A stretch of 51,698 nt of DNA, from NCBI GenBank assembly GCA_008690995.1, contig VRMN01000002.1, positions 2,356,001 to 2,407,698 of the forward strand, read 5' to 3'. The position numbers were made by a program, and so were the translations under genes. The notes under the pieces are model-generated. The model made no database searches. It was given only the letters and a program-made list of their open reading frames with translations, and was not told the DNA's origin. This document shows positions 16,811 through 47,798 of the stretch, piece after piece. This DNA is from Porphyridium purpureum. Lineage: Eukaryota. Within the stretch, counting starts at the first letter, position 1. Each line of letters starts with the position of its first letter.

Positions 16811-17594
16811 CTTGGAATTTCTCCCTTTCTGCTTTGTAACCGAATCAACAAAACCGGATCGCTTCACCGATAACAGGAACTGGAAACCGCCACACCCCGG
16901 AAACTGACAAACCGACGACGAACCGACACACCGAAACGAACGGAAGGACAAGCAGGACAATCAGAGAAAAGTGGCTAGAAAGGAAGAGAGGACAGAAAAT
17001 TCAACTTATAGGGGACTACGAGAGGGAGTGGACCGGTCTTGACAAGTGAAGGGTGATGGAAGGTACGTTTAAACCCCAGCTGCCTTTTTAAAAACACTCC
17101 AGACCGATATCCGCTCGCACAACACGCTAGCGTGCCTCTCCCGCAAATCCAACCCAAGTCTTCCAACGACTGCCTCAATCCAACTAACCAATTCTCTTTT
17201 TATTCTATTTGCCCTTACCTCTTCTTCTACCTTGACCTGGAAATTCCTGGGAACCAGCTTGCCCCTTCGTCCTTTTATACCCTTCGTCCTTGCTCTTTCC
17301 AGCAAGGACGGGAGAACAAATTTCTCCAACAGGACGAATTTCCACCACAGGTTTTGATTCGTTCCACAACTCGCAACCACAGCCGGCCACGTATCCGAAA
17401 AATGGCCGGGAAGGCGCGTCAAGAACGAATCCAGAAGCTTCGGCCGGCCTTTGACCTTTGCACAAGGTCACACAAAACGACAATGACAAACATTTCGCAG
17501 GTCCGAGATCATCACGCTTCTCGAACAATCTTTCATCATAGAACTTTCTAGGGTTTTGTACTCAAAACCCTACGGCGTCTCTCGGGGCGGAACC

Positions 17595-20801: not shown

Positions 20802-20807
20802 TTTTCC
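20746..20807 (-). promoter_or_regulatory. -1 ribosomal frameshift signal of A: G_GAA_AAC + H-type pseudoknot
   Basis: Heptamer directly before the gag stop; stem 1 CCTCGAGA/TCTCGAGG, stem 2 ACAGGAGG/CCTCCTGT; pol is in the -1 frame. Confidence 0.85.
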
Positions 20808-21745: not shown

Positions 21746-21762
21746 TCTCTCCAAACAACCGG

Positions 21763-21774
21763 GCGATGATACCA
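21763..21774 (-). promoter_or_regulatory. Primer-binding site TGGTATCATCGC (probably tRNA-iMet); identical at 30455-30466 and 39102-39113 (+)
   Basis: TGGTATCA immediately after the 5' LTR in A and C. Confidence 0.85.
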
Positions 21775-22571
21775 CTTGGAATTTCTCCCTTTCTGCTTTG
21801 TAACCGAATCAACAAAACCGGACCGCTTCACCGATAACAGGAACTGGAAACCGCCACACCCCGGAAACTGACAAACCGACGACGAACCGACACACCGAAA
21901 CGAACGGAAGGACAAGCAGGACAATCAGAGAAAAGTGGCTAGAAAGGAAGAGAGGACAGAAAATTCAACTTATAGGGGACTACGAGAGGGAGTGGACCGG
22001 TCTTGACAAGTGAAGGGTGATGGAAGGTACGTTTAAACCCCAGCTGCCTTTTTAAAAACACTCCAGACCGATATCCGCTCGCACAACACGCTAGCGTGCC
22101 TCTCCCGCAAATCCAACCCAAGTCTTCCAACGACTGCCTCAATCCAACTAACCAATTCTCTTTTTATTCTATTTGCCCTTACCTCTTCTTCTACCTTGAC
22201 CTGGAAATTCCTGGGAACCAGCTTGCCCCTTCGTCCTTTTATACCCTTCGTCCTTGCTCTTTCCAGCAAGGACGGGAGAACAAATTTCTCCAACAGGACG
22301 AATTTCCACCACAGGTTTTGATTCGTTCCACAACTCGCAACCACAGCCGGCCACGTATCCGGAAAATGGCCGGGAGGGCGCGTCAAGAACGAATCCAGAA
22401 GCTTCGGCCGGCCTTTGACCTTTGCACAAGGTCACACAAAACGACAATGACAAACATTTCGCAGGTCCGAGATCATCACGCTTCTCGAACAATCTTTCAT
22501 CATAGAACTTTCTAGGGTTTTGTACTCAAAACCCTACGGCGTCTCTCGGGGCGGAACCCTAAAATTCCACG

Positions 22572-22925: not shown

Positions 22926-23255
22926 TGTTGAAGTACGCCCCCGGCGTAAACCCTGCAAAGTCAAGAAACGGTTTACTTTGTAATACCACTCGCGTCAAAA
23001 ACATATTCGCCTACCCAAACGCTACACTCAAAATTTCCACCCTACTCCTTGGCCCTGCAGCATTTTATACCCCTGTAGCTGCACTGTGGCGGCGGCGCGG
23101 AGATGCAAAGCGACAAGGAAACGTCAGTGTGGACTTCTAGAAACGTCGCAAACATACGTGCCCATGGCTCGTGCTAGCACGCAGGCTCGCACCCGACCGA
23201 ACACATTAAACAGTCCAAACAGTCCAAGTCGTTGACCCGGATAACCATTCAACCA

Positions 23256-26200
23256 TTAACCATTTGCACGTACATCAACACACTCCCGTCGGTCCGTGTT
23301 AGCCTGCGCTAGATTCGCAACCTCAACGCCCAACATGCGTTCACGAAGTGAGCGGAAAGCTTTTCCTTGCAGGGGCTTGGTGTGAGCGTCCGCCACCATC
23401 TGCTCCGTGGGGCAGTACGTCATCTCTATCTCGCCGCATGCAACTCTGTCGCTGACGAAGAAGTGCCTCAGAGCAATGTGTCGGGTCCGCGACGAGTTGG
23501 GACGCCCGTTACGAACTAATTTCATGGTGGCCTCGTTATCTTGGTACAACAGGGTGCTGAGGCACTCCACACCGAGCCCTCGCAGCAACCTCTCGATCCA
23601 GAGAGCTTGACCTATGCAGTCACTGATGGCGACTAGCTCTGCCTCTGTTGAGCTCTTGGACGCGAGACTCTGACGGCTGCTCTTCCCGTACACCGTTCCG
23701 CGGCCCAGGCTGACCATGCAGCCAGAGTGGCTCTTCATGTCGCTGTGCACACCAAAGGACGCGTCAATGAAACAGTGCACGCGCGGCGCTCCGACGCACC
23801 CAAGTGTGAGCCCCAGCTCGCGCGTTCCTTGCAAGTACTGCACAACCCTGCGCAGCTTTTCTCTGTCTTGTTCGGTTGGGGCTTGTACTCGACCCGTCAA
23901 GAATGATGCCGCGACCAGCAGATCTGGTCTCGCCCTCTTGCTGAGATAAAGAAGTTGACAGGCTGTCGTGTGGAAGGCTCTCGCGGAGGAAGCAGCCAGC
24001 AATGGCGAGTCTTGAACCTGAAACAGGTCGTCCAATGCGGGGGTTTTGCCACCGACCTTACCCAGCACAAATGGCTCGGCCTGCTCAATGATCTTGTCCG
24101 CGTATGCGGGCATCCTGACGGTAACTTGACCAGGTTGGTTATAGTCAAAAACCATTTGTAAATATTCAATCACACTGCCGCTGCGCATCGTGAGCACTCC
24201 GTACTCCGGCTCGAGTCCCTTTACCAGTTTGACGATCGCGGCGTCGTTTACAGCCATAATCTTCATGTCGTCCACGTGTAAAGCTAACCAGGTGTCGTCT
24301 TCATCGCTTCTGAACACGCAATAGTCTACCATGCTTCTTTGGTATCCCAACGCCGCGAGGCTTCGACATAGATGGTCATACCATAACTTTGCGCTCGTCC
24401 GGCAACCATATAATGCTTTCTTCAAGCGACAGACTAATGTACCTGAAGCAGACAAATGGCTCTGGAGTGTCGGATCAGCGGTCGTCATACACTTCGCCAG
24501 CGCCTTTGCGAACCGAACGAAAACGGGTGGATCACCGCTTGGCATCACTGCATTCAAATACGCACCTGGAAAATCTACACTGGCAACCTTTCTCCCTTGT
24601 GTTGCTGACATGGCAGCAAGCGCAAACAACGACTCAGTAGCGACTGTTGGGGACGACGTATTTGGGTACAACTCCGGATCCTGTCGATCACCCCCAGCAA
24701 CCAGTCGAGCTTTCAAGCGCACAAGCTCTCCGGTTTGTGGATCACGTTTCTCCGTCACAAACAAATGCACGGGCAAAACATTGCGCAACTCGTCTTCACT
24801 GAGTCTCCTTGTCACAGGCTCAAACACGTCGTGACCATTGGACCCCAACTGCACGAGCTCGCTCATGACCGATTCAAGTGCAGGCTCGCCATACTCCTGG
24901 ACTGCTCTCAACCATGAGACGGTCGGCGCTTTCAAACAGTGCGCTTGGACAAACTCTGTAATTAGAGCTAGCCTAATTCTACGCCTTTTTGCTTCCCCTG
25001 CGTATGTATTGCACCCGTCACTTCCGCCTTGATCCGCTGCCGTTCTTTTGGTGCTAAGTCCGCCGACAGAAGCCGGTCCAGCCTGTTCACCATGTCCGTC
25101 CAGTACGTTTTTCGTTGTCATTGTGCAATCTGCGAGATCCCACTCTGCAGGTGCCCCTTCGACCACGCCGACTTGAACAGCCTGACCTTCGCCTAAGACG
25201 TCGTGATCGTCGCTGACCTGGTAGGCAGCAGCACGTTTGTCAAGCGCGTGGATCTGTTCCTGCAGAATGGCCTCTTTTCGAGATAATTCCTCAATTCTTT
25301 TCTCGATTGCTTCGACCCGCACTCCCGGATTTTCCTCTGCGTTTTCTCCCGCTCCTGGATTACGGTTCGGTTGTGATGATTCTACTACTGCTGACGTGCG
25401 CGAATTCTCCAGAGTTTCTTCATGTTCATTCGCAGAACGCGCTGCACGTGTCTCGCTAAACGCTCCGGCTGACAAGGTCAACCCACTAGCTGTTCGAGTC
25501 GCTGCTGCCCCAGCTGGCTTGCCTGCCTCCCGTCCGGCGGTGTCATGTTTTTCTGCCTCATGCTCATGATCTTCTGTCGCGAGTTCAAGGCGCGCAGTGC
25601 CACGCATGGCGTTAACAGCGGCAACAACCTCTTGTGTAATGACAGTTTTCCTCCACCGTTGTCTGCGCAACTCTTTCTGCGACGCGAGGTTTAGAAAAGC
25701 CCACGTTCCTTCAACATTGCCTACCGGGTATAGAGCTATACAGCCGGTGGCGCGTGGTGTCATCGTGTTGTCCACCTTGGCATTCATGATGAGAACGTAA
25801 TCGCCAAAACCGAGACTCACATCGGCTGTGCTGCTAACTTTTCGCCCGGTCATTCTGGTCCACGGAGTCTCGTCATCTCGCCAACCTGTGCTGCTTGGTA
25901 CGATGTTGGCCCGGTGAGTTACATACTTCATTAGCGCTGGAACCAAGCTGGTCGGCAATGCAAAGGGTAGGCCATGGATGACAGCCCTCGCTATGTCCTT
26001 CAGCGTTCGATTGGCACGCTCCACTGCTGGTACGGCCTCTTTCGCTCCCGTGACATTTGGTAATATGCCGGACCTTTTCATGTCATCAACGATAGCAACA
26101 ATCCCCGATTCCGGGTCCGACTTGATGACCCTGATCACCACGTTGTGACCTCGCAAACTGGCAATTTGTTCTTGCAGTGCCCGGCGCAGCTCCCATGACG

Positions 26201-27098
26201 TCTTTGCTCTGATCGCTGTTGTCAGAATGAAGTGCATTGGTTTCACGACAGAAATCAAGAAGGCTTGTCCGCAGAGAAAGTGGATATCCGAATGCATCTC
26301 TTGGTAGACCTCCTCATTTCTTATCGGGACGTAGCCAACTTCCGTAGGCTTGTGTCCAGTTGCCTTTCCTTTGATCGCGGCTTCGCTTGGGCCAAACAAT
26401 TGTTCGGCTCTCTCTGCATCCCGCGCGGCCAAATTACAATTTTCAACATCCCCGCGCCTAAGCACTTTTTTCAGCACGTCGAACGAAGGGAATCCCAAGC
26501 GACGTTGTAAGTCGCGCGCTTGTTCTGCCCGGGCTATCTCTTGCTTTGTGAAGGGCGAAGGTTTGCCGCCACTAGGTAACGGTAAAGCTGAACGCTCCAT
26601 GGAGTTGTGGCGGCTGTCAGTGGAGAAGCATTTGTGTGCGGGAATGTTGTCAAGATCGTGCGTCAGGCCATTGCAAGGAGCTGCGTATGCGTTTATCTTA
26701 CCACTTACGCAACAGATATCCGCCACATACAGCCCCTGGTCCTGTCTGAAACGCACTTCCTTGTTGTCAACATCCAGAACAACAAACACGTCCCCGGCCA
26801 TGTCATACTTGGTGCCCTTGTCTTCGTTCCTCAGCTTGGCGAATGACAAGATGTTCCCGGCCACTTTCTGCGAGTAGTACACTTCGCCAAATTTGGTGTC
26901 GGCAATCTCGTCAATAAATATTCCACTTGATCCGGCGTCAATTCCGTGCAGCACGACCTTCCGGTCCGTCTTGCGCACGTTCGTAACCGCCTCACCACTC
27001 GAAAAGATATGCTCCGAAGCCATTGTATCAAGGCCCACTGTGGCCGCTTCCCTGTTTGTCGCCCGGTGGACATACACGTGTCGCAACGGGCCGCTTCC
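23256..27098 (-). CDS. pol: Element B Pol: protease, integrase lacking a clear HHCC, RT, RNase H
   Basis: GLDTMASEHIF; LQRRLGFPS..FGPSEAAIKGK; HSDIHF..KSDPE..VERANRTLK; KARLVAGG, DFPGAYL, KKALYG, LHVDD; FIDASFG, KSSTEAEL, MVADAHTKPL. Confidence 0.95.
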   Translation of the reverse strand, partial: GSGPLRHVYVHRATNREAATVGLDTMASEHIFSSGEAVTNVRKTDRKVVLHGIDAGSSGIFIDEIADTKFGEVYYSQKVAGNILSFAKLRNEDKGTKYDMAGDVFVVLDVDNKEVRFRQDQGLYVADICCVSGKINAYAAPCNGLTHDLDNIPAHKCFSTDSRHNSMERSALPLPSGGKPSPFTKQEIARAEQARDLQRRLGFPSFDVLKKVLRRGDVENCNLAARDAERAEQLFGPSEAAIKGKATGHKPTEVGYVPIRNEEVYQEMHSDIHFLCGQAFLISVVKPMHFILTTAIRAKTSWELRRALQEQIASLRGHNVVIRVIKSDPESGIVAIVDDMKRSGILPNVTGAKEAVPAVERANRTLKDIARAVIHGLPFALPTSLVPALMKYVTHRANIVPSSTGWRDDETPWTRMTGRKVSSTADVSLGFGDYVLIMNAKVDNTMTPRATGCIALYPVGNVEGTWAFLNLASQKELRRQRWRKTVITQEVVAAVNAMRGTARLELATEDHEHEAEKHDTAGREAGKPAGAAATRTASGLTLSAGAFSETRAARSANEHEETLENSRTSAVVESSQPNRNPGAGENAEENPGVRVEAIEKRIEELSRKEAILQEQIHALDKRAAAYQVSDDHDVLGEGQAVQVGVVEGAPAEWDLADCTMTTKNVLDGHGEQAGPASVGGLSTKRTAADQGGSDGCNTYAGEAKRRRIRLALITEFVQAHCLKAPTVSWLRAVQEYGEPALESVMSELVQLGSNGHDVFEPVTRRLSEDELRNVLPVHLFVTEKRDPQTGELVRLKARLVAGGDRQDPELYPNTSSPTVATESLFALAAMSATQGRKVASVDFPGAYLNAVMPSGDPPVFVRFAKALAKCMTTADPTLQSHLSASGTLVCRLKKALYGCRTSAKLWYDHLCRSLAALGYQRSMVDYCVFRSDEDDTWLALHVDDMKIMAVNDAAIVKLVKGLEPEYGVLTMRSGSVIEYLQMVFDYNQPGQVTVRMPAYADKIIEQAEPFVLGKVGGKTPALDDLFQVQDSPLLAASSARAFHTTACQLLYLSKRARPDLLVAASFLTGRVQAPTEQDREKLRRVVQYLQGTRELGLTLGCVGAPRVHCFIDASFGVHSDMKSHSGCMVSLGRGTVYGKSSRQSLASKSSTEAELVAISDCIGQALWIERLLRGLGVECLSTLLYQDNEATMKLVRNGRPNSSRTRHIALRHFFVSDRVACGEIEMTYCPTEQMVADAHTKPLQGKAFRSLRERMLGVEVANLAQANTDRRECVDVRANG

Positions 27099-28130
27099 TC
27101 ACTCGACCGTGCGCTCTTTCTTGAGCTCCAGCTTAAGTTCCTGAAGTTGACGCTGGCACTCGCCAAGTTTTTCTTCCATGGTTCGTGTGTGAGCGTCCCT
27201 GGTCTGGTTCCTTTCCAGTGCCCTCTTCTTCTTCCAGCAGTTCTTCTCCAGGTGTCCCGGGATACCACAAAAATGACACTTCCCCTTGGAACCGCCTACA
27301 TCAGCTTTTGCAACCGCAGCTATCGCTTCACCACTTACAGTGGCCGCCTCGATGGCTAACTGGGCTTCATTGGATTGCGCAACTGAAACGGACACATAAC
27401 CAGGCGCATACTTGTACGCGGAGACGTACAAAACCACGTCCTGAACGCTTGCAAATTGTCGCTCGGCATTGTGGGCTTGGCGAATTGCCTCTGCGAAGCG
27501 CGACCGCTCCAACTTATGGAAGAACTCTTCCGCCTGACGCGCTGCACTCATCTCCTCGCCTACAAGGGCGAGAACCATCGCTGCGGCCGCAAACCTGGTT
27601 TTGAAATCATCCAGAGAATCTGCTCCAATTTCTATAGCTTGAAACCGCTCACGTGCAAATGTACGGCAACGATCCACGGATGCGCCATTCGGTGTCAGGT
27701 GCACCACGACGATTAGATTTTTCAGCTGGAGAGGATCGTTGCGAGATCTTTCAAGCATCTCAAACTGCGGGCGAGCAGAAAGAGCCGCAACGGAAGACGT
27801 AGACAGCTGTCCGCGCATAATCGCATAGATTCTGGACCTCGCGAGCTCCATATCCGCGCTCCATTTGAGCGCGGTGCTCAACTGTGATTTGGCGATTTCC
27901 TTGTCTCTCCAGTTGTCGGGCTCCTCTGCGTCCGGTAGGGCCGGGCCCTCTGGGTACCTCGCATTATTGAGGTCGAAAATCGCTCCGAGCAACCCAAATT
28001 CAACAGCTGTGTAGCCTCCAAGCGCACGGAGCCATTCCGTGACTTCCTCGGCCGGCCGCATCTCGGTCGCATCATACCTCAGTAGCGGGAGTCCCTCCGT
28101 TACTCCCTTTTCGCCAATCTTCTTGGCCAT
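27099..28130 (-). CDS. gag: Element B Gag with CCHC knuckle; TGA stop in frame with pol
   Basis: CHFCGIPGHLEKNC; position between the 5' LTR and pol. Confidence 0.9.
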   Translation of the reverse strand: MAKKIGEKGVTEGLPLLRYDATEMRPAEEVTEWLRALGGYTAVEFGLLGAIFDLNNARYPEGPALPDAEEPDNWRDKEIAKSQLSTALKWSADMELARSRIYAIMRGQLSTSSVAALSARPQFEMLERSRNDPLQLKNLIVVVHLTPNGASVDRCRTFARERFQAIEIGADSLDDFKTRFAAAAMVLALVGEEMSAARQAEEFFHKLERSRFAEAIRQAHNAERQFASVQDVVLYVSAYKYAPGYVSVSVAQSNEAQLAIEAATVSGEAIAAVAKADVGGSKGKCHFCGIPGHLEKNCWKKKRALERNQTRDAHTRTMEEKLGECQRQLQELKLELKKERTVE

Positions 28131-28611
28131 TTTGTCTGCCGCACGCCGCTCGAACTTCCTGTCAGCGCCGTCGGCCTTGTCCCCCCGTACCCTTGACCGG
28201 AGATCCTACTTCCGCTCGTACTCTTGACGAAGCGGAGGAAGCGTTGAATGTTTTTGTGTTGAAGTACGCCCCCGGCGTAAACCCTGCAAAGTCAAGAAAC
28301 GGTTTACTTTGTAATACCACTCGCGTCAAAAACATATTCGCCTACCCAAACGCTACACTCAAAATTTCCACCCTACTCCTTGGCCCTGCAGCATTTTATA
28401 CCCCTGTAGCTGCACTGTGGCGGCGGCGCGGAGATGCAAAGCGACAAGGAAACGTCAGTGTGGACTTCTAGAAACGTCGCAAACATACGTGCCCATGGCT
28501 CGTGCTAGCACGCAGGCTCGCACCCGACCGAACACATTAAACAGTCCAAACAGTCCAAGTCGTTGACCCGGATAACCATTCAACCATTAACCATTTGCAC
28601 GTACATCAACA

Positions 28612-28795: not shown

Positions 28796-28796
28796 G

Positions 28797-29465: not shown

Positions 29466-30476
29466 TAGGGTTAGAGGCGTTTTTCAGGTAGGGTGGGCCC
29501 TGCGGTTCGGCCATACCATAGTACAGTTGCTTCGGACTCTAGTACAGCTGCTTCAGACTGTAGTATTGGGTTAGTGCGTTTTGGGAAGGATGTGTGGTCC
29601 ACAGTGCAGTTCGCAGTGCAGTCAGCGTACTACAGTATAGTGAAATCATGGATTAAAAGTGTTCCGGTCCGAGAGACGCCCTGGGTGTACACCCGGAGGT
29701 ACGGCGTCTCGGAATTGTTTGAGGTACAGGGGCTTTTTCGCCCACGTGGTTTTTTACCCTGTACCTCTGGTTTGTGCATTGTTGTCTTTCGCCCCGAGGA
29801 GCCGGAGTCGCGTGTCCGAGGGAAGCAGGAGCCGCTTGGCGGCCGGCCAGCACCCATTGAGCCGCTTGCTGACGTGGCTGGCTGTGGCTTCGTTCTGTGG
29901 AACGAACGGAGGAAAGCCCAGCCTTTGGGAGAAATAATTTCTCCCTTCCGCGTCAAGGACAGCAAGGACGGCGGGGTATATAATGGGCGCGGGCCTGTGC
30001 GGTTCCCCGGATTTTCTTTAGAGCGGAAGAAGGAGAGGCAAGGGAGAAGGACACAGAGAATAAAAGGAAGAGTTGTTCTTTGGTGTCGGGTGCCTGGGCG
30101 TGGTCGTCGGAAGGCGTGGGGCCTTTTGCTGAGCCTGTGTAGCAGAGCCAGCAGCACATCGTGTCTGGGGGGTTTCGGTGCTCTTGGAGCACTGAAGGCA
30201 GACGGCGGCTTTGTCCGTTACGACACCCTGCCCCTGTCGAGACCGGTGCTGTCTGTGCCGACGCGAAAGGCAATAGTAGAGGCCCTATACGCTGGATTTT
30301 CCACGCCCCGGGTATTCGTCGTCTGTGTTGTGTGCGTCGTGTGGTTGTGTTCTCTGTGCTGTGTGCGTCGTGTTGCTGGGGTTCGGTCATCTGAGAAGGG
30401 TTGTGTCATCCGGGTTCGTGCGCTTGTCATCATCAAGCGTGCGAGAATTTAAAGTGGTATCATCGCATCGGCGAAG

Positions 30477-31433
30477 ATGGATTCTGAGGGAATGGACGTG
30501 CAGGGCCTGCAGGGCGGCGCGTCGTGGATTGAAGCTTTCAACCAGCTTCATGCTCGTATCGGAGGACAAGAAATGATGATTGTGCAGCTGCAGGAGGGAA
30601 ATCGCCTCTTGCAGGAGATGCTGCAGAATGTGATGCATCAGGCATCTGTGTCAGCTGGTCCCGGCGAAACGGAAAGGACCGTTGCATCGCTGATTGGACG
30701 CAGCTTGAGAAAATACGACGGACAGCGCGACAAACTCGTTGTGAACGAGTGGTTGTCGAGGATGAAGCAAGACTTGGACATGTGCATGCCAGCTGGAGCG
30801 CTGGAGTCGCAGAAGGTGATCGTAGCGTCGCGCTTCTTTGAGAAGGATGCCGCGCTGTTGTGGGCAGCTCGCCCTGAGGAACAGAGGATGGCATTGGCCG
30901 AGTCCGGTTGGAATGCGTTCGCGAGCTTCGTGCGGACGGCATTTGAGCCGCCGCAGGCATACCTGACTGCTCGAACGAACTTGTATCAGCTGAAGCAGGG
31001 CAAGATGACTGTTGCTGAGTTTGAGCAGCGCCTGAGGATGGTGGCTCTGTCCGTGGATAGTGTGACAGATGCCGAGCTCAACACCATCTTCACTCTCGGC
31101 CTGAAGGAGAAGCTTCGCCTTGAGGTGGCGCGTCAGGACACGAAGACGCTGGAAGAGTCGCTGAGGGCGGCGTTGGCTGCGGAGCAGGTTGGTAGGTTTG
31201 GAGGAGACATGAGGGAGGCTTTTCATGGCGCCTCGAGTCCAAACTACCGGAACAGCTCGTCGTATGCCGGGACGGCGCCAATGGATTTGGGCGTCGTGGA
31301 GAAACGCCAGCCGGAGAAGCGCAAGCATGCGGACATGGGCAAAGTCAGATGCTACCATTGCGGGCAGCGCGGCCACATCAAACCCAATTGCCCAAAGCGG
31401 AATGGGCACTTGGCGGGAGGCCCGGAAAACTAA
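30477..31433 (+). CDS. gag: Element C Gag
   Basis: Clear homolog of A Gag; APMDLG; CYHCGQRGHIKPNC. Confidence 0.93.
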   Translation: MDSEGMDVQGLQGGASWIEAFNQLHARIGGQEMMIVQLQEGNRLLQEMLQNVMHQASVSAGPGETERTVASLIGRSLRKYDGQRDKLVVNEWLSRMKQDLDMCMPAGALESQKVIVASRFFEKDAALLWAARPEEQRMALAESGWNAFASFVRTAFEPPQAYLTARTNLYQLKQGKMTVAEFEQRLRMVALSVDSVTDAELNTIFTLGLKEKLRLEVARQDTKTLEESLRAALAAEQVGRFGGDMREAFHGASSPNYRNSSSYAGTAPMDLGVVEKRQPEKRKHADMGKVRCYHCGQRGHIKPNCPKRNGHLAGGPEN

Positions 31434-31483
31434 AACCTCGAGGGAGAAGTTGGGAGGTGCACTCGAGGGGAACGGAACCTCCC
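31424..31483 (+). promoter_or_regulatory. -1 frameshift signal of C: G_GAA_AAC + pseudoknot
   Basis: Stem 1 CCTCGAG (31436-31442) / CTCGAGG (31462-31468); stem 2 GGGAGGT (31452-31458) / ACCTCCC (31477-31483). Confidence 0.85.
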
Positions 31484-34400
31484 GGGATGGGCTTTGTAGG
31501 TGAGGTCTGGCGCGCTGATGCGGCGTCGAGGTTGCTCTACAAGCGTGGAACTTTAGATGGCGAGTCTGTCCAATTTCTGGTGGACAGCGGAGCATCGCAC
31601 AATTTTCTTGGATCTCGCTTTGTCGGCAGATTTGAAGGGCGCGAGAACGGAATGGTCAAGCTTGCGGGTGGGCAAAGTGTCTTAGTGCATGGCCCGGTGT
31701 TGCAGCATGTTGATCTTGGGTTCTGGAAAGGGCCGGTCAAGTTTTATGTCGGGCCTCTGCAAATGGATGCAATTCTCGGGTGGGACTGGCTGAGTCGCGT
31801 GAACCCGAGGATTGATTGGCAGAGGGGTTCGATGGACTTGGGACTTGAAAATGTGGAAGATTGTGCGATGGTGAATGTCGTGGACGCTCTTTCCGAGTCA
31901 AGCGGAAATCAAGCGTACGATGGAGAAGAGGAGAGTGCCAGTGAAGGGGTCGAAGGAAAGATGGCCGGGATGGAACATGCGTTGACTCACATGCCGATGC
32001 GGGATGATTGTGAGACGTGTGTTGTGGCCAAGATCAAGAGCCAACCAGCAAGAAGGCTGGAGAAGGACTTGTCCACTTTGTCGCTCAATGACGAAGTTGG
32101 GATCGACCTGGTGGAGCCCGGACGTAACGTGGAAGCCATCGATGGGGCGAAGTACATACTGACGCACATCGATAGAGCGACGAGGTGGGCCACACTGGCA
32201 GGATTGAGAGCCAAAACGCATACGGCGGTTGCTGAAGCTTGGACAAGCGTGCAAGCCGGGCGAGGATGGCCAAAGGTACTGAGGACAGATGATGGAAACG
32301 AGTTCAGGGGAAATGTGAGCAATTTGGTACGGGAGAATCTCGTGAAGCATGAGATTGGCGTCCCACATAGACCAAATAGCCACGCTGAACAGGAACGTTT
32401 CCATCATACTTTGAATCAGGGGGTACGAGCAAATCTCCTGCAGTCTGGGCTGGGAAAGCGGTGGTTTTTGCATGCCGCTCAGCATTTCGTCTTCATGTTC
32501 AATCGGCTGCACCCAGACAAGAGGTCTGGGAAGTCTCCGTATGAAATGAGGTACGGTGAGAGATGGAAGCGGGGGAAGGTAGCAGTACCATTTGGATGCA
32601 AGGTGGTGTTCAAGAATGATCAACCTGAGAACAAGTATGCACCCAGAGGAAAGATTGGAGTCCTTGTTGGAGTTGCGGAGCATCCGCTGGCAATCTGGGT
32701 CCTTCCTCAGGAGGAGTGGACGAGTGCGGCACCGAGGCTGACTCGCACTCAGGACTTCAAGGCGTTCCCTGAAGTGTTTCCAATGCGGACTTTGGAAACA
32801 AGGGATGACGAGGAGGTCTCGGCACGTGAGGGTGAAATCGACTTTCACTCTAGGCAGGAAGAACCGGATAGTCAAGAGACTATGGTGTTGCCTACGAATA
32901 CGGCCGAGGCGCGTGAATCCGGGAACTTGGAGGAGGATGTTCCCCTACCTGTTGGAAGAAGGGGGAAACGAAAACCCAGGGTATCTTGGAGCCGGGAAGA
33001 GGATCAGGCCATCATGGATGGCTTACGGCTCTTTGGCTGGGGGAAGTGGGAAAGAACTCTGCAAGAATACAAGGCAGTGTTCCGCGATTCAAGAAACGGA
33101 AAGGATGTGCGAGCCCGGGCTCATAATATGGGCCTCTCGGAGGAAAATTGGAGGCAACGCGCAGGAGTTGCTCCAGAAACACCGCAATTGAACTTGACAA
33201 CTTTGTTGCAGACGAGCCAAGCTCTGGCTTCTTCGGCTGGAAGAGAAGCCATGCAAAAAGAAGTGGACTTGATGATCCGATTCAAGGTATGGGATGAGCA
33301 ACCTATTTCAAGGGAAGAAGCTCTCAAGGTCCCAGGCGCACGATTTGTGCGGACACACTTTATATTCGGATTGAAGTTCGCTGAGCTTCCGGAGGAGTTT
33401 CGCAAGGTCAAGTGTCGGCTTGTTGCTGGTGGAAATAGGATTTGGGATGCCTCAGGGAAGGTCACTCAGGATGTGTTTGACTATGAGGTGCCCGCGGGCC
33501 TGTCTGCAATCAGAATGTTGATAGCTTTGGCCGCGATCCTGGGATTGAAAATCGTGTCGTTCGATGTGACGTCGGCGTACTTACACGCTGACTTATCAGG
33601 ACCACCGACGTTTGCCATGTTGCCCCGTCACGTTCCAGGAGGAGGTGATGGACTTGTCGTTCGCTTGAGAAGGGCGCTTTATGGCTTGCCAAGAAGCGGG
33701 TCTGACTTTTCCCAGGATGCCCGCAGAAGACTTCAAAAGTTCGGGTGGGACTTGATTCACGGTGAGAAGAACGTATACGTGAAAAAGATGGCGGGAAGTG
33801 CATCTGTTGCACTCTTGGCCTTGTATGTCGATGATGGCCTGCTCGCGTGTGCCGAGAAGGATCGGGGTGAGATATTTCGAGAGTTGAGGTCAGAGTTCCT
33901 CATTGAGAAGGAGCCAGAAGTCCTCTCGGAAGGTACCCCGTTGAGGTTCCTAGGTCTCACGATCTCGGAGTCGGCGGCACGGCTTTCGTTGGATCATGAT
34001 CACTACCAAGCTTTGGTGGTGAAGGAATTCGAAGAAGAACTTGGGCAGGTGCTGCGAGCGGTGAAATCACCAGGTGAGAAGATGAATGCTGACGCTGTAT
34101 TGGATGTTCAAGTCGAACATGGACATCTGAAAATACGCGAGCATGTTGGGCGGCTGCTGTGGTTGGCCAGGACGGTCAGACCGGATATCTCGTACGCAGT
34201 TGGAGTGGTGGCTCGGTACGTGGATAGCTGGAACGTCGCAGCTGAGAGACTCCTGGTTCGCGTCATGCAATACTTGAAGGTTCCTCGTGAACCACTTGAG
34301 TATTTGCGGATGACGTCATTGAAGGTCGGTGACGTAAGCGTCTTGGGCTATGCTGATGCCGACTTCGCTGGATGTCCGGAAACGCGCAAGTCGACGTCTG

Positions 34401-34849
34401 GACGAGTGACGTACTTGGTCGCGGGTGGAAACAAGTATCTGGTCGACTGGAGCTCCAGAAGGCAACGCTTTGTGAGCTCTTCGACCTCTGAGTCTGAGAT
34501 GGCCGCTCTGGAAGAAGCGGTGCAGTTGTCTCTGTTTCCGGCATTGTCGTTTCTTCGAAGCGTGCAGGAGGGTGATTATGCGTTGACCCTGCTTTGTGAT
34601 AGTCAAGTTGTTCTCCGTGCGGTCAAGATGGGCTACTCGCCAAAGTTGCATCACATGGCAGTGACCAGAGCCACGGACTTGGCGTGGATACACCAAGTTT
34701 GCGAGAAGCAAAAGCTGGTGAGATTGGAATATGTGAGGACGGGGGAAAACGTGTCCGACTTGATGACAAAACCTTTGTTTCCGGAAGGTCATATCAGGTG
34801 TTGGACTATGTTACGCGTCCCTCAGATCGGAAGGAGGAGCATGGATTAA
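31430..34849 (+). CDS. pol: Element C Pol: protease, integrase, Myb/SANT domain, RT, RNase H
   Basis: FLVDSGASHNF; HALTH..CETC; LRTDDGNEF; WSREEDQAIMDGLRLFGWGKW; LYVDD; YADADFAG. Confidence 0.95.
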   Translation, partial: LKPRGRSWEVHSRGTEPPGMGFVGEVWRADAASRLLYKRGTLDGESVQFLVDSGASHNFLGSRFVGRFEGRENGMVKLAGGQSVLVHGPVLQHVDLGFWKGPVKFYVGPLQMDAILGWDWLSRVNPRIDWQRGSMDLGLENVEDCAMVNVVDALSESSGNQAYDGEEESASEGVEGKMAGMEHALTHMPMRDDCETCVVAKIKSQPARRLEKDLSTLSLNDEVGIDLVEPGRNVEAIDGAKYILTHIDRATRWATLAGLRAKTHTAVAEAWTSVQAGRGWPKVLRTDDGNEFRGNVSNLVRENLVKHEIGVPHRPNSHAEQERFHHTLNQGVRANLLQSGLGKRWFLHAAQHFVFMFNRLHPDKRSGKSPYEMRYGERWKRGKVAVPFGCKVVFKNDQPENKYAPRGKIGVLVGVAEHPLAIWVLPQEEWTSAAPRLTRTQDFKAFPEVFPMRTLETRDDEEVSAREGEIDFHSRQEEPDSQETMVLPTNTAEARESGNLEEDVPLPVGRRGKRKPRVSWSREEDQAIMDGLRLFGWGKWERTLQEYKAVFRDSRNGKDVRARAHNMGLSEENWRQRAGVAPETPQLNLTTLLQTSQALASSAGREAMQKEVDLMIRFKVWDEQPISREEALKVPGARFVRTHFIFGLKFAELPEEFRKVKCRLVAGGNRIWDASGKVTQDVFDYEVPAGLSAIRMLIALAAILGLKIVSFDVTSAYLHADLSGPPTFAMLPRHVPGGGDGLVVRLRRALYGLPRSGSDFSQDARRRLQKFGWDLIHGEKNVYVKKMAGSASVALLALYVDDGLLACAEKDRGEIFRELRSEFLIEKEPEVLSEGTPLRFLGLTISESAARLSLDHDHYQALVVKEFEEELGQVLRAVKSPGEKMNADAVLDVQVEHGHLKIREHVGRLLWLARTVRPDISYAVGVVARYVDSWNVAAERLLVRVMQYLKVPREPLEYLRMTSLKVGDVSVLGYADADFAGCPETRKSTSGRVTYLVAGGNKYLVDWSSRRQRFVSSSTSESEMAALEEAVQLSLFPALSFLRSVQEGDYALTLLCDSQVVLRAVKMGYSPKLHHMAVTRATDLAWIHQVCEKQKLVRLEYVRTGENVSDLMTKPLFPEGHIRCWTMLRVPQIGRRSMD

Positions 34850-35730
34850 AAGTGTTCCGGTCCGAGAGACGCCCTGGGTGTACACCCGGAGGTACGGCGT
34901 CTCGGAATTGTTTGAGGTACAGGGGCTTTTTCGCCCACGTGGTTTTTTACCCTGTACCTCTGGTTTGTGCATTGTTGTCTTTCGCCCCGAGGAGCCGGAG
35001 TCGCGTGTCCGAGGGAAGCAGGAGCCGCTTGGCGGCCGGCCAGCACCCATTGAGCCGCTTGCTGACGTGGCTGGCTGTGGCTTCGTTCTGTGGAACGAAC
35101 GGAGGAAAGCCCAGCCTTTGGGAGAAATAATTTCTCCCTTCCGCGTCAAGGACAGCAAGGACGGCGGGGTATATAATGGGCGCGGGCCCGTGCGGTTCCC
35201 CGGATTTTCTTTAGAGCGGAAGAAGTAGAGGCAAGGGAGAAGGACACAGAGAATAAAAGAGGAGTTGGTTCTTTGGTGTCGGGTGCCTGGGCGTGGTCGT
35301 CGGAAGGCGTGGGGCCTTTTGCTGAGCCTGTGTAGCAGAGCCAGCAGCACATCGTGTCTGGGGGGTTTCGGTGCTCTTAGAGCACTGAAGGCAGACGGCG
35401 GCTTTGTCCGTTACGACACCCTGCCCCTGTCGAGACCGGTGCTGTCTGTGCCGACGCGAAAGGCAATAGTAGAGGCCCTATACGTTGGATTTTCCACGCC
35501 CCGGGTATTCGTCGTCTGTGTTGTGTGCGTCGTGTTGCTGGGGTTCGGTCATCTGAGAAGGGTTGTGTCATCCGGGTTCGTGCGCTTGTCATCATCAAGC
35601 GTGCGAGAATTTAAAGGAAATGCGTACTTTCTGGGTTACTCTAGGGTTAAAGGAGGTTTTGCGGGTTGGGTTAGCTTACCTCATCTCTAGTACAGTTCAC
35701 GATCCACACTGTACACTACTGTAGGGTCTT

Positions 35731-38292
35731 AGGGTTATATAGGCGAAAAATACCTGCAGCGAGAAATTTTAGCCTTGAACGGTAGGGTAACGTGACTTAA
35801 AATCATAAAACAAGGTTACTTTACTATGGAATGCCGCTGTTGTGGGGGTACGCTGCGGAACCCTAAAGTTAATGTAAGCGCGTCCGCAAAACAGGTGCGT
35901 TTTGCTAAATGAAATTCGGTTACTATGAAAAAAAATTACTTTACTAGAGCTGATTTTACTATTCAAACGCACGTATTTAGAGGCTTTGTGCCCATTTCAA
36001 TGTCATCCTCAGCAAAGTAATTTGTATTGCATAGACATCACAAATTGTAATGCATTGCAGCGTCATCCCATGTGAAGGACACGGGACTATATGAGAATGA
36101 CACTGTTTGATGATTTAAATAAGCATAGAAGGATAGGCTATAATTATGATCATGCCGGCGGCGAAGGAGGGGAGGTCGACGCGAAGGGGAAGAAGGTTGG
36201 ATCCGGATGGTTGTCGAGCGCGGGCGGGCGCGGGCGAGCGCGGTGGGCGCGGCGGGCGCGGGCGGCGCGTGGCGGCGGCGCGCGGGCGCGGTGGGCGCGC
36301 GGGCGCGGCGGGCGCGGCGCTGTTCGCGGGCGCGCGGTGGGGTGCGGGCACGGGCGGGCGGCAGTGCGCGAGTGGCGCGGCGGTGGTAGCCGGGCAGAAG
36401 TGGCGCGGCGTGCGTGAGAATGTTGGATAGGCACTGGGCAGTGCTTCACACGAGCGGCACGAGGACGGCGCACAGGCGCGCGATCCGTTTCAACAGCTGT
36501 GTGCATTGTGCACTTGCGAGCTGAACCTAACCAACATGCTCGAATGCGTCAAGGCAAGGATGCTGGCGAATGTGAGCGGGATGCTTTTGAGTGGTAAGCC
36601 GGGCACTGGTTTGGGCATGGATGTGTTGCGTGAGGGCGCAGTATGCATGCGCTGGCGTGAGAATGGAGTGCGTGATTGAATGCCACGAAGCGTGCCATGG
36701 ATGATGTTTTCATTGCTGCCGTCTCGTTACGAGCGACTGCTCGCTTGCGCGATTCTCAAGCGACAGAGGTGGGTTGCGTTTTGGGCGGCCGGGCTATGAC
36801 AACACCTTTGATGATCGAACGATGCTGGGCTCGCTGTGCTGGGCTCGCTGTGCTGGGCTCGCTGTGCTGGGCTCGCTGTACTGAGCTCGCTGTGCTGGGC
36901 TCGCTGTGTGGGCTCGCTGTGTGGGCTCGCTGTTCGTTGCGTCCCGTCAGGCAGTAAGCTTCAGGGCACGCGTACTGTTGCACACGAGGCGGCTGCGCAC
37001 AACAAGCTGGTGCGTTCATCGGGCGCGGTGCGCGGCTTGCAAAGAGCGTGGGCTAACGTTGGATGTTGCGGTGCGCGCACCTTTCAAGGCAGAAAGAGAT
37101 GGATTGCATTTTTGGCCGCCGGGCTGGGCGACACTTTTGATGGCTGCGCGGTACGGGCTCGCTACGCCCTGTGCGCGTTGTGGACCAGCAAACTGTGGCA
37201 ACACCTTTCCTTTTCGCGAGATATGGGCTCGCTGTGCACTGTGGCTTGCGTGCCGTTAAGCGCCAAGCTTTAGCGTGAGTGCATTGGTGAAAAAGAGGCG
37301 GCGTTGTGCGTCGATCTTGCTCGTTCGTTGTCCGCGGGGCGCACACGACGCAAAGAACGTGGGCAGTGGTTGAATGTCGCGATGCGCGTCGACGCCAAGC
37401 CTGCGCACTAAGACCGCGCGCAGCCGGAGAACGTAGGCGACGTAGCCTGAATCCGCATCTCGGCGTGACCGGTGCAACAGTGCCAGTTTCGTTATGCTGT
37501 GTCTTGCCAGATCGCAATGGCGCTGGCGCGATCTTGCACGTGTGCGCTCGTGAATGGGCTGCCGCGATTGTTGGTGGGACGTCGGCTCTGGAGTTGCGCA
37601 GACAAACGGCAGCCGAGGGCTGGCGCGAAAAATGGGGCGCCGATGGGGTGGTGCGGAAATCGTGGCGGTGACGGGCTGGTGAAAAGATCATGGCTGCGGC
37701 GATCGCGTCGCTACGCGCATGCCACACTGTTATATGTGTGCGATCAGCTCTGGCGCCGCTTCTCGCGAAACTTCGAGCTACTGCTGAAAGCATGTTACGA
37801 AAATAAAATACAACGTAGCCAAGAAAACTTGAGCCAGCGCTTTGCAGCAGACTCAAGACATACCCTTGAAAGACACGGACTTGCCATGTGTCATGCACAA
37901 CTTTTCGAAGGCAAAGTGTGAGAATTGTGAGCGCGGGGAATGTACTGAACACTACCGAAGACCACAGAACACTATAGGAGACCACAGAACACTACGAAAA
38001 GCCGCTGGACACTACTGGAGACCACAGAACACTACAGGAGACCACAGAACACTACAGGAGACCACAGAACACTACAGAAGACCACAGAACACTACGAAAA
38101 GCCGCTGGACACTACTGGAGACCACAGAACACTACAGGAGACCACAGAACACTACAGAAGACCACAGAACACTACGAAAAGCCGCTGGACACTACTGGAG
38201 ACCACAGAACACTACAGGAGACCACAGAACACTACAGAAGACCACAGAACACTACGAAAAGCCGCTGGACACTACTGGAGACCACAGAACAC
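35731..38292. repeat. Subtelomeric block type I, copy 2, ending in the 20-bp satellite (~37944-38292)
   Basis: Near-identical to 14491-16810 apart from the G-rich tract and minisatellite copy number. Confidence 0.93.
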
Positions 38293-39297
38293 CATGGATT
38301 AAAAGTGTTCCGGTCCGAGAGACGCCCTGGGTGTACACCCGGAGGTACGGCGTCTCGGAATTGTTTGAGGTACAGGGGCTTTTTCGCCCGCGTGGTTTTT
38401 TACCCTGTACCTCTGGTTTTGTGCATTGTTGTCTTTCGCCCCGAGGAGCCGGAGTCGCGTGTCCGAGGGAAGCAGGAGCCGCTTGGCGGCCGGCCGGCAC
38501 CCATTGAGCCGCTTGCTGACGTGGCTGGCTGTGGCTTCGTTCCGTGGAACGAACGGAGGAAAGCCCAGCCTTTTGGGAGAAATAATTTCTCCCTTCCGCG
38601 TCAAGGACAGCAAGGACGGCGGGGTATATAATGGGCGCGGGCCTGTGCGGTTCCCCGGATTTTCTTTAGAGCGGAAGAAGAAGAGGCAAGGGAGTACGAC
38701 ACAGAGAATAAAGGAAGAGTTGTTCTTTGGTGTCGGGTGCCTGGGCGTGGTCGTCGGAAGACGTGGGGCCTTTTGCTGAGCCTGTGTAGCAGAGCCAGCA
38801 GCACATCGTGTCTGGGGGGTTTCGGTGCTCTTGGAGCACTGAAGGCAGACGGCGGCTTTGTCCGTTACGACACCCTGCCCCTGTCGAGACCGGTGCTGTC
38901 TGTGCCGACGCGAAAGGCAATAGTAGAGGCCCTATACGTTGGATTTTCCACGCCCCGGGTATTCGTCGTCTGTGTTGTGTGCGTCGTGTGGTTGTGTTCT
39001 CTGTGCTGTGTGCGTCGTGTTGCTGGGGTTCGGTCATCTGAGAAGGGTTGTGTCATCCGGGTTCGTGCGCTTGTCATCATCAAGCGTGCGAGAATTTAAA
39101 GTGGTATCATCGCATCGGCGAAGATGGATTCTGAGGGAATGGACGTGCAGGGCCTGCAGGGCGGCGCGTCGTGGATTGAAGCTTTCAACCAGCTTCATGC
39201 TCGTATCGGAGGACAAGAAATGATGATTGTGCAGCTGCAGGAGGGAAATCGCCTCTTGCAGGAGATGCTGCAGAGCGTGATGCATCAGGCATCTGTG
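38293..39297 (+). mobile_element. Truncated family-C copy: 5' LTR 38293-39101, PBS, first ~58 gag codons
   Basis: Matches 29647-30650, then switches to GTTACTCTAGGGTTAGGG. Confidence 0.94.
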
Positions 39298-42983: not shown

Positions 42984-43004
42984 AGGTTACTCTAGGGTTA
43001 CTCT

Positions 43005-46000
43005 GAAATCGTTTTACATTATAAATCTAAAGGGCCTAAGCTCTGTACCTATGTATCAGCAAAGTCAGTGCGACTCTGCTTCCGATTCCGAGAGTACCTC
43101 GCCTACAAAGAGGCGCCTGCCCGTCTCCAGCCAGTGCTGCGAGGCAACTGGCAGAGTCGGGCCCGGGTGCCGTAGAAGCACCGCCGCCGCCACCGAGCGG
43201 TACACCGCGAGCGACAGCGACCGGTGGAGCGCCGTGCTCGCCAGCATCTTGCTGACTCCACGGTGCCGCATGTACGCCGCCACCAGAGTCTCCAGAAACG
43301 CGGCTCCGCACTGTTCGCGCCGGCCGTACGTGTCCAGAATGACCGCCTGGAACGACACGCCAGCAGCGTCGCCGGTGCGCGCAGCAGCCTGGAAGGAGGC
43401 CTGCTTGCGACGCGCCGCTGCCGCCAGTGCCGCTCCGTCGGACCGCCTGGTGCCGGTGCGGTCGGGCACCACCACCGCCCACATCGACCCACGTGCTGTC
43501 CACGCGCAGGTCGCCCGGCCGGCGCAAGTCAGCCGCGCCGGGAAGAGCGCACCTCGCGCTCCACCGGCAAACCAGCGCGCGCGCAAAGGCAACCACGGCG
43601 TCGACCACCAGTGCGTGCCGACCGTACCGCGACGGCCCGAGGCGAGCGCGTGGTGACCGTGCTGGTCCAGCGCGCCCCGCAGACGGCATCCGAGCTGCCC
43701 GATAGCGCCGGACACGGACGCCGCGCTGCGTGGCTCACAGACAGGCCAGCATGTGTCGCACAGCCACGCGCCATGCAGCTGCACTCGGCGGCGCGCTTCC
43801 GTGCGTGCCGGCCAGCTGCGTGGCAGACGGCATCCCGAGCCACGCCAGCGCGTGCGGCGAGCTGACGCTGCGACGTCGGTGAAAGTCTGGGTCGGACGGG
43901 GCCGGCGCGTGGGACCAATCTGAGCACCATTGTCGATAAAAGCGACGGCTCCCACGTGCCTGCGAGTCCAGCAGGGCTTCCACATCTTCGTCTGGCTCCA
44001 GGCGCCACTGCGCCACGGCGTGTGCGTCTCCGTCAAACCTTCGCCACCACTGCGCGAGCGACGGAGGGTACACGCGTGCGGGCGGGTTGTCCACCACGCG
44101 CGCGGCAGCACGACTGCCGGCGGCAAACGCAAACGGCGCAATGTCTGCCACTGCGGTCAGTCCCAAGCCGCCAAGCGAGCACGGCAGCCGCCACTCGGCC
44201 TTGCACGGCTCGCCGACCTCGTGTGCCATCACACCCAGCGCGCGCGCGACAATGCTGCGCCACGCGCGGTCAAACTCGGCAAAGATGCGAGTCACGACGG
44301 GCGGAGGCATGGTGCGCGCCAGGTGCATCAGGCGCTTTGGCCCGACGCTGCCCCGCAGGAGGTAGAACGCCTCTTCGGGGTGGCTGAGCTTGGCCACCTG
44401 CTCCGCCAGCTGGAGCACCTGCGCGCTCGCGTTGGTGATCGGCACGAGCGACTCGCCACTGCCGGTAAAGTCGAGCGGCACACCGAGCAGCTGCGCTTGG
44501 TCCCACGCCAGACGCGGCAGGTCGGCGAGTCCCGCGGGCACGACTGCCGTGTGCATTCCGGGAGGCAGTACCAGCTGCGTCTTGGTGCGGTTCACGCACA
44601 TGCCGTGCACGGCCGCGTCGCTCGAAAAGGCGTCCAGGAAGCCTTCCAGCTGCGCGAGCGGCCCCACAATGCTGCCGTCGTCCAAGTACCAGAACGACGA
44701 CAAGCCCGGCGACTCGGTGTCTGCCAGCACCTTGTGCAGCACCAGCGAGAACAGCAAGGGCCCCAGCGGGTCGCCCTGCTGCACGCCGCACGCGCTGGCC
44801 AGCACATGGGCGCCCACTCGCAGCGGAGCCGGATGCGCGTACGTTGAGCGCACCAGCGGCCACAGCGCGGGGAAACGGCCCTGCACGATGCGCATCAGCG
44901 TGGGCCGGTCGACGCAGTTGAACGCGTTCGCAATGTCGACGAGCAGCACGGCTGTGCCTGGACTCTGCATCGCGGGCGCGTCCCCAGCACCGCGCCTTCG
45001 AGCCCGGCCGGGCGTCCCACGCCGTACTGGTCGGGCCGGAGCGACTCGGCTGCGTCGCTGCCCAGGTGTGCCAGCACCAGCTTGCCCAGCACGCGCCGCA
45101 GCAGCTCGCCCACTGCAATCGGTCGGACGCCGCCGTCCTTCTTCTTGAGCGGGATGAGGCGTGCGTGGCTCCACAGCGCGCCAGCTTGCGGATGCAGACC
45201 AACACTGGCGATGCGCTTGAACGCGAGAGCCACGGCCCCGAGCGCCGTGTCACCCGCCACGGGCGTGCGGATGACCTGCTGCAGCACGCCTATGGACCAC
45301 CGCGACGGTCCGCACCCGCTGGTGTGCGGAATGGCCAGAATGGACTTGCGCACCGCCTGCGCGTCCCACGGCACGCGCATGCACTGCAGCTGGTCGATAC
45401 TGACCGACTCGACTGGTGCGACGAGCGCTGCGTCGTGGCTGCCGCTGCGAGCCCCTGCCTCTGGATGCAGCTCGCGCAAGCGCGCCAGCACCGAGTCCGT
45501 GACGTCGTGCACACCCGCCGACTCGACCAGTCGCGCCGCGGCGCCAATGTGGTTGGCGCGCACATGCTGCACGATGCGGTGCTCCACGGCCTCTGGTGGT
45601 ATGGGTCTGAGGTGTTGACCGTCCACCACAGGCACCGAGTCGAGCAGTGGCTCGAGCGCATCGGAGCGCCACATCTTGAGCCGCGTCGCCAGGTATCTTG
45701 CCCGCGCGCGCGTGCTCTGGCGCTCCATGGGCAGGCACAGCACCAAAGTCGGAAACACCCACAGCTTTCCGAGCGCGCGGACTTGTGCGGCCTCGGACGC
45801 GGCTTCGGCCAGCTCCGTGAGCATGCTGCTGAACTCGAGCGCAACGTCCGGCGCAAACTTTGCCGGTACGCGCTTCCACGTGCGCACGCGCAGCCCCAGC
45901 ACCCAATCTACCGTTTGAAGAATGGTGAGTATGGGGGCGTCGAGCAGCGGCGACGGCGGATGCGCAGCGGCGTGACGCGCCGTCGACACATGCGTGTCTG

Positions 46001-47606: not shown

Positions 47607-47798
47607 CTAGGGTTACAGGCGTTTTTGAGGTACGGTGGGGCAGATCCTAGGGTAGGGTTTCTCTGCGCATACAGGTACAGCGATTACACTTGATCCAGCA
47701 GTACAGTATGTATAGGTTACAGGCGTTTTTGAGGTAGGGTGGGGCGTAGCGTAGGGTTCCTCACTTCGTGTTGAGGGTGCAGTGAGTACACTGGTCCT

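Follow-up and report, generated by a model that had tools for sequence, protein, structure and literature searches.

A predicted Myb domain of TRF-like build between integrase and reverse transcriptase in copia-type LTR retrotransposons of Porphyridium purpureum

The stretch of Porphyridium purpureum DNA analysed here, called the window throughout, is 51,698 nucleotides long and holds a complete LTR retrotransposon, element C, together with related and unrelated mobile elements and a 20-bp satellite; no tRNA genes were found within it. Its features are as follows, in order of position.

14173..14493, reverse strand: family-C LTR fragment of 321 bp, with a WD40 ORF about 130 bp away and a break at a GGGTTA junction, without Myb
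16811..22571, reverse strand: element A, a sister family without Myb, with target duplication AACAC in the 20-bp satellite
22926..28611, reverse strand: element B, a distant copia element without Myb, with TG..CA LTRs, inserted in the 20-bp satellite
29642..29646 (left copy) and 35617-35621 (right copy), forward strand: target-site duplication of element C, GAAAT, 5 bp
29647-35616, forward strand: element C, with LTR pair, primer-binding site, polypurine tract and GAAAT duplication
29647..30454, forward strand: 5' LTR of element C, starting CATGG and ending TAAAG, not TG..CA
30455..30466, forward strand: primer-binding site of element C, common to element A
30477..31433, forward strand: gag of element C, Ty3 type (Retrotrans_gag, Ty3_capsid, CCHC knuckle)
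31196..34849, forward strand: pol ORF of element C, 1217 codons
32957..33139, forward strand: predicted Myb/SANT domain, TRF-like in build and with a basic arm at its N-terminus, pol residues 588-648
34829..34839, forward strand: polypurine tract of element C
34840..35616, forward strand: 3' LTR of element C
35633..35649, forward strand: short telomere-type seed (GGGTTA), 11 bases past the target duplication
37945..38292, no strand assigned: 20-bp satellite (80-bp higher-order), with further parts at 16725-16810, 22567-22925 and 28609-28795
38293..39297, forward strand: truncated family-C copy (LTR and the first part of gag) within the 20-bp satellite, ending in a break at a telomere-type junction, without Myb
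42993..47610, reverse strand: frameshifted non-LTR element with C2H2 fingers and an RVT_1 reverse transcriptase (RT), telomere-type motifs at both ends

Element C is an intact, young LTR element that belongs to copia by its pol order and its RT. Its LTRs are 99.35% identical over aligned bases, and an empty site with a single GAAAT is present in public contigs (runs X7 and X5). The primer-binding site is one that we take to be of the initiator-tRNA type. The gag ORF overlaps pol, which lies in the -1 frame and would be reached by a frameshift. The pol ORF encodes a gypsy-type protease, an integrase (HHCC, DDE core and SH3), an acidic linker, the Myb domain, RVT_2 and RNase H, with protease, integrase core, SH3, Myb and RVT_2 recognised by Pfam in this sequence; it has the copia order PR-IN-RT-RH and a copia-type RT (RVT_2, E 5e-17). 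An LTR pair, primer-binding site, polypurine tract and 5-bp target duplication, all usual for copia, are present; the TG..CA termini, which are usual without being strictly defining, are absent, the LTRs of both C and A having C at the start and G at the end. Copia-type Gag and protease are likewise a usual, not strictly defining, Ty1/copia feature, and were found in P0258 and P0263, the profiles in C, A, P0022, P0092, P0096 and P0265 being of Ty3 type. In the RT/RNase H tree, one underlying run of which omitted P0110, P0123, P0129 and P0134, element C falls in a separate lineage beside the canonical copia sequences.

A preliminary description of this DNA had counted three family-C copies in the window, of which one is a complete element and the other two are fragments without Myb. 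A public P. purpureum protein is 99% identical to element C over the region searched, and the family C cluster has 17 members, 15 of them listed, on at least 11 contigs, with copies about 98% identical to each other. The whole Myb domain is carried by 12 of the 15 listed members, with about three variable positions among them; one of the remaining three consists of gag only, one stops at the start of the Myb domain and one lacks its first half. The start of the family C LTR had no match in metagenome contigs, and no relatives were found in the viral contigs searched.

The 59-residue segment encoded at 32957-33133, which had been read as a Myb/SANT domain with a TRF-like pattern, lies in frame between the integrase SH3 domain and the RT, and the HMM and structure searches that were proposed for it have borne the reading out. 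In isolation, the segment scores 29.3-29.6 bits against PF00249 (cut-off 24.4, E 9.5e-7); within the whole polyprotein it reaches 23.5 bits, narrowly short of the cut-off, and it is missing from the Pfam matches precomputed for the public homologue. The same profile matches seven of eight aligned family Myb domains at E <=1. TRF1 is the best sequence match among solved structures (E 4.8e-4, with 33 matches at E <=1), and Atlas also assigns Myb to the domain (0.91).

The AlphaFold model, built from an eight-sequence alignment, has three helices and a pLDDT of 84.8. Among 48,161 chains, its closest fold is the TRF1 Myb domain (Z 8.7, rmsd 1.4 over 51 residues, Z values of this size being modest for small helical domains); the top eight matches comprise TRF1, Tbf1, TRF2, NgTRF1 and one mouse single-Myb protein, with c-Myb R2 behind at Z 6.1. 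Foldseek with the same model gave no match at E 0.001, its best having E 0.15. Since the fold ranking places TRF1 first, the scaffold is predicted to be TRF-like, and on the model the domain is a real one, a Myb fold of TRF-like build. Two other assignments were considered and rejected: the SHAQKYF class, whose profile TIGR01557 gave 13.9 bits (cut-off 29.3) and matched only one of eight family members at all, and the c-Myb repeat 2 type, which has a similar helix 3, but the overall fold puts TRF first.

Homologue searches and a search of 1.84 billion representatives placed a Myb domain in the same slot between integrase and RT in ten families (C, P0022, P0092, P0095, P0112, P0103, P0104, P0129, P0096 and P0265), all of which bear P. 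purpureum names and whose RT/RNase H sequences are 33-67% identical. Leave-one-out profiles recovered the held-out Myb domain in all ten (16.6-75.6 bits), while the background, made up of 212 other proteins together with every reversed sequence, stayed at or below 8.4 bits. Once their sister family was also held out, P0129 and P0096 fell to the background level of 8-10 bits, so that their Myb assignment rests on that sister. Between C and the other nine families, identity is 20-37% in the Myb domain and 33-38% in RT/RNase H; for the trio P0092, P0095 and P0112 the values are 60-72% and 61-67%, and in several other pairs the Myb domain is lower, as for P0092 compared with P0129, P0096 and P0103 (14-25% and 36-49%). 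The linker upstream of the domain is unalignable between families by eye, and four families have a basic extension after it.

The Myb families fall into three RT lineages, and P0093 and P0094, relatives of other origin, do not carry the domain. Monophyly of the Myb families with A and P0094 gave an AU p of 0.094, and four state changes were counted on the tree, P0099, P0115 and P0116 not entering the count; one gain of Myb followed by losses is not rejected, and the families may alternatively have exchanged the domain early on. On these comparisons, the domain is a lineage trait, not a peculiarity of element C. No Myb-bearing elements were seen outside P. purpureum among 150 representatives, most of them without a taxon, in shared-word searches that may miss some. 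A host donor gene was not found: the region search gave family C only, and among 7995 longer proteins scored with a profile, the 11 matches comprised ten proteins of P. purpureum elements and a single fungal Myb protein with multiple repeats.

The slot itself is modular in the families compared. As had been described, the relative A lacks the segment; a heptad, coiled-coil-like stretch stands in its place and resembles, by eye, that of the distant element B. Other relatives have a C7H zinc-ligand module in the slot, with eight invariant Cys/His ligands in all nine aligned sequences, and P0096 and P0265 carry both, the zinc-ligand module being followed by Myb. The module had no consistent Pfam or PDB match, its best Atlas assignment reached 0.80 and its model is poor (pLDDT 53). 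Element A has an integrase closely related to that of C and similar LTR termini, but aligning the LTRs of the two requires about 300 gap positions. The A cluster has 16 members, compared with the 17 of C.

In TRF1, the base-reading residues are K421, D422 and R425, while R415 and R423 touch the DNA backbone (PMC2377444). Element C shares with TRF1, TRF2 and Tbf1 the fold, the longer loop between helices 2 and 3, the first two tryptophans and the basic arm, and with TRF1 the salt-bridge residues corresponding to E387-R415 and D388-R423; both backbone arginines are kept. Unlike TRF1, it has R, A and H at K421, D422 and R425 and A at the core position W424, and it is a single domain without a dimerisation domain. 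Across the ten families, the D422 position is never D and is A or S in eight, the K421 position is R in seven, and the R425 position is R in two and takes seven different residues among families of one host. The W424 position is A in nine families and W in none. The equivalents of R415 and R423 are each basic in nine families, and that of M427 is hydrophobic in all ten. Judged by its major-groove residues (K421, D422 and R425) and by W424, the domain of C is not a telobox protein.

The divergence of the recognition helix, already pointed out in the preliminary description, is confirmed (R/A/H in place of K421/D422/R425), but its explanation as loss of binding through decay is unlikely, because the helix 3 signature is conserved across deeply split families and thus looks like a stable feature. 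The Myb domain of TERB1 offers a comparison: it is TRF-like, carries A, H and H at the K/D/R positions, and has lost DNA binding yet is functional; in TRF1, R425V alone abolishes DNA binding (PMC8867601). Unlike TERB1, element C is basic at the K421 position and its domain lies in a transposon polyprotein.

The seed GGGTTA at 35633 is separated by 11 bases from the 5-bp duplication and by 16 from the LTR of the complete C copy, which agrees with the roughly 12 bp originally given, although as a telomere signal the distance fails, being within chance. Outside the elements, 2.5% of the window is within 16 bases of such a hexamer, and to the right of 14 kb the share is 4.5%; with six intact junctions (C1, C3, C4, A, B and E) the chance of one match is about 14-24%. 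The short motif distances of C3, C4 and E stem from truncated ends, not insertion sites. The complete copy sits in a target of about 300 bp with six GGGTTA motifs; the other two C junctions in the window, one in the 20-bp satellite and one beside the WD40 gene, have no telomere-type motif at their intact ends. Besides A, B and C, the satellite has taken in a fourth LTR element, which is truncated (28796-29465). Element A and the C fragment at 38293 share one register of the satellite, consistent with an integrase core common to both choosing the site, and the Myb-less B is in the satellite as well.

In public contigs, none of seven distinct readable C flanks (by eye, among the matches listed) contained a telomere hexamer within the 27-36 bases available, one of these flanks lying behind a slightly diverged LTR, one stopping two bases short and five mixed-consensus matches being uncounted; flanks of about 30 bases are blind to tethering from farther away. 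None of the three junctions in the window and none of the seven public flanks lies inside repeats, where a telomere-specific element would take a fixed position. One flank is in a 4.2-kb contig at depth 210, compared with 1156-1629 for the subtelomeric unit, a difference that is only a hint. Several public C flanks start with GAAA, to which no weight is given, since contig sampling favours window-like flanks.

If accession order is taken as position, the contigs forming unbroken accession blocks, five C records lie at 10-71% of the length of the largest contig, and five of 16 C records have an A record no more than 30 genes away (1.4 expected, p ~0.009). The assembly has 52 contigs and the accessible text of its paper makes no mention of telomeres (PMC6811547), so that chromosome ends joined wrongly might account for internal C positions. 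Families with and without Myb occur at common insertion sites, and since A, without Myb, is as abundant as C and found in the same places, no effect of Myb on site choice is visible. Telomere targeting by element C is unsupported, and by the features tested C is not a telomere-specific element.

The window nevertheless looks subtelomeric, although no long terminal telomere array is present in it. It contains 23 copies of GGGTTA, 21 of them on one strand, compared with 11.3 expected, and none of 100 shuffles reached 23; the motifs occur in short seeds at broken ends of several elements and around the non-LTR element at 42993-47610. By its RT motif, this element is presumably CRE/MoTeR-like; Pfam did not confirm an REL endonuclease in it. 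As in MoTeR1 of Magnaporthe, which is related to CRE/SLACS, telomere-type motifs flank both of its ends, and its 5' end is toward the side to which the G-rich strand points (PMC7367193). The window resembles MoTeR arrays, where insertions of LTR elements occur as well (PMC7367193); the counterpart of MoTeR1 in it is the non-LTR element, not element C. The non-LTR element is a better candidate for telomere targeting in the window than element C.

Myb domains of retrotransposons are known from non-LTR elements, namely R2 and R4/Dong, where target choice is tied to Myb and target-primed reverse transcription occurs at fixed sites; the Myb domain of R2 works with zinc fingers (PMC7998251), much as P0096 and P0265 pair a zinc-ligand module with Myb. 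Element C differs from these in being an LTR element that uses a DDE integrase, makes variable 5-bp duplications and lacks a fixed site.

TRAS elements likewise have a Myb domain of the site-specific non-LTR type. A TRAS study describes engineered TRF1 fusions, its accessible text leaving the native Myb domain unmentioned (PMC2868851). In Copia, domain gain is rare, the accessible part of one survey reporting that none passed its filter among 4,811 plant consensus sequences (PMC9289625). The precedent closest to element C is CoDi-A, a group of diatom copia elements with a chromodomain at the integrase C-terminus (PMC2774666), and the Ty3 chromoviruses similarly carry a host chromatin-type module there (PMC2774666, PMC12477314). 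The position of Myb in element C corresponds to that of such targeting modules, as had been noted. Unlike in the chromodomain integrases, the module is Myb/SANT and alternates or coexists with a zinc-ligand module and a coiled coil, and its targeting role is inferred; should it hold, element C would work like chromodomain-tailed integrases. No Myb domain in an LTR integrase was found described in the literature searched, whose coverage stops short of most subscription journals and of Repbase, and a Myb-tailed integrase in an LTR element is apparently undescribed.

Tentatively, and with a little less than even confidence, we favour the reading that Myb remains part of the integrase tail and anchors the integration complex on DNA or chromatin, with no recognition of telomere repeats. 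What is established is the presence of the domain, its predicted fold and its retention in families whose RTs are 33-67% identical. It would have been captured once, early, from a host single-Myb gene, and later lost or replaced in A and P0094. A protease cut just before the RT would leave Myb on the mature integrase, as its place upstream of a conserved pre-RT motif suggests. The basic arm, together with those backbone-contacting arginines that are kept, would then grip DNA or nucleosomes with a sequence preference that is low or differs by family, the integrase core would pick the exact bond, and a regional bias towards repeat-rich domains, subtelomeres included, may result, Myb-less families being found there too. 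Since the net charge of the domain ranges from +7 to -8 over the families, one DNA-tether mechanism cannot fit P0104 and P0129 unchanged; these strongly acidic domains (-7 and -8) and the success of the Myb-less A weigh against a tether. So may TERB1, by analogy, as a case in which a TRF-like Myb domain, altered at these residues, has ceased to bind DNA altogether. If the tether reading is correct, the domain is a candidate for a new class of Copia targeting module, an old and selected integrase-tail tether.

A more doubtful alternative is that Myb is a protein-binding adaptor without DNA binding, which links the integrase to a host protein of telomeres or heterochromatin. The integrase of Ty5 binds Sir4 in a comparable manner. 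The change of two of three base-reading residues and of the third tryptophan, as in TERB1, would fit an adaptor, as would the two families with acidic domains and the clustering of C and A in repeat-rich places; the strongly basic arm of C and the backbone arginine positions, basic in nine of ten families, argue against it, as do the Myb-less families that reach the same places. It is rather improbable, too, that the captured telomere-protein Myb is a swappable aiming cassette, with the helix of each family tuned to a different mark and that of C aimed at non-standard telomere or subtelomere repeats.

PIF/Harbinger transposons have a Myb protein, and in an analogous way the domain might act on the element itself, by binding cDNA ends or LTRs, in nuclear import or in control of its own transcription. 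Helix 3 varies between families as the LTRs do, the arm is basic, four families have the basic extension and target choice shows no visible effect; that A manages without Myb, with a closely related integrase and similar LTR termini, nevertheless makes such a role unlikely.

The central suggestion of the preliminary description, that the integrase reads telomeric DNA directly, is not supported. In its wider form, Myb would recognise the repeat of the host telomere, or else a variant like the 11-bp unit of the window, and direct adjacent insertion. A survey including the species left its telomere repeat unsettled, so that a variant is possible (PMC3622300), and the TRF-class fold, the subtelomere-like window, the six GGGTTA motifs around the complete copy and the retention of K421 as R in seven families are consistent with this. 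Two of the three major-groove residues are, however, changed and variable across the ten families, the R425 position taking seven residues in families that share one host, and the readable public flanks listed lack telomere repeats, one of them in the low-depth contig. The motif-free junctions of the other two copies in the window, the spread of C over at least 11 contigs, with internal positions by accession order on the largest, and the Myb-less families at the same sites add to this, and telomere reading must be considered quite improbable. Least likely is a neutral passenger in a tolerant linker, for which the loss of Myb in A and P0094, the thriving of A and the youth of family C (too few variable Myb positions for a selection test) could be cited, but the domain is in frame and conserved about as well as the RT across splits of about 35% identity, next to a linker that cannot be aligned.

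With ten Myb families, a close Myb-less sister and relatives with a zinc module, one small genome offers a natural series in which the site choice of copia integrases becomes testable. The motifs of the window are candidates for the Porphyridium telomere repeat. If any of these Myb domains reads DNA, it would make a natural DNA-guided integrase, and if the domain is an exchangeable aiming device, P. purpureum would harbour LTR retrotransposons aimed by a sequence-reading domain of their own, which could serve as a probe for the Porphyridium telomere.

The Gag and protease of six related families, among them the complete element C (29647-35616, + strand) and its sister A (16811-22571, - strand), are of Ty3 type (30477-31800 and 20798-21808 in the window) and are joined to a copia-order integrase-RT-RNase H. 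In contrast, the polyproteins P0258 and P0263 combine a copia-type Gag and protease with an RT related to that of these six families, and from this difference in sequence the 5' module, Gag together with protease, seems to have been swapped. Instead of the termini TG..CA, the LTRs of both C and A have a C as their first base and a G as their last, and both elements are flanked by clean, 5-bp target duplications.

The integrase tail is also variable. Directly after the SH3 domain, the polyprotein P0265 (895-955) and its relatives carry an unannotated C7H zinc-ligand module, the eight ligands of which are invariant in all nine aligned proteins (alignment A2), and which in two families stands in tandem with the Myb domain. 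The module lacks a consistent match in Pfam, PDB or Atlas, and its predicted model is poor. Coiled-coil-like tail segments are alike in the pol genes of A (17595-20843) and B (23256-27098), although these elements are only distantly related, which suggests, from sequence likeness, an exchange between families. Another related copia polyprotein, P0105, ends in an AAA_28 P-loop domain (1213-1375, E 4.6e-13), which may be either a genuine fusion or a gene-model artefact.

The elements lie among the following features:

16725-16810, 22567-22925, 28609-28795, 37945-38292: satellite of 20-bp units, arranged in a higher-order repeat of 80 bp
14491-16810 = 35731-38032: duplicated non-coding unit, 98-99% identical, each copy beginning at GGGTTA
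39481-43425 = 47715-51698: duplicated non-coding unit, 98-99% identical, each copy beginning at GGGTTA
42993-47610, - strand: frameshifted non-LTR element, CRE/MoTeR-like, telomere-type motifs at both ends
2370-5818, + strand: protein kinase, then Sel1 repeats, adjoining the repeat domain
11143-14043, - strand: WD40 gene, about 21 repeats about 95% identical in DNA, adjoining the repeat domain

Four different LTR families have inserted in the satellite, A and C in a common register. Decayed Sel1-repeat fragments within the second duplicated unit resemble the gene at 4844-5818.

Four unrelated elements are broken at 14493, 29466, 39298 and 39452, each break being directly followed by a short telomere-type seed, one of which mixes a 6-bp and an 11-bp unit. 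These breaks may be a record of telomerase healing, and the seeds may hint at the host telomere repeat. The non-LTR element, which we take to be CRE/MoTeR-like from its RT motif and of which further 3' fragments lie at 39311 and 51266, is the window's best candidate for telomere targeting.
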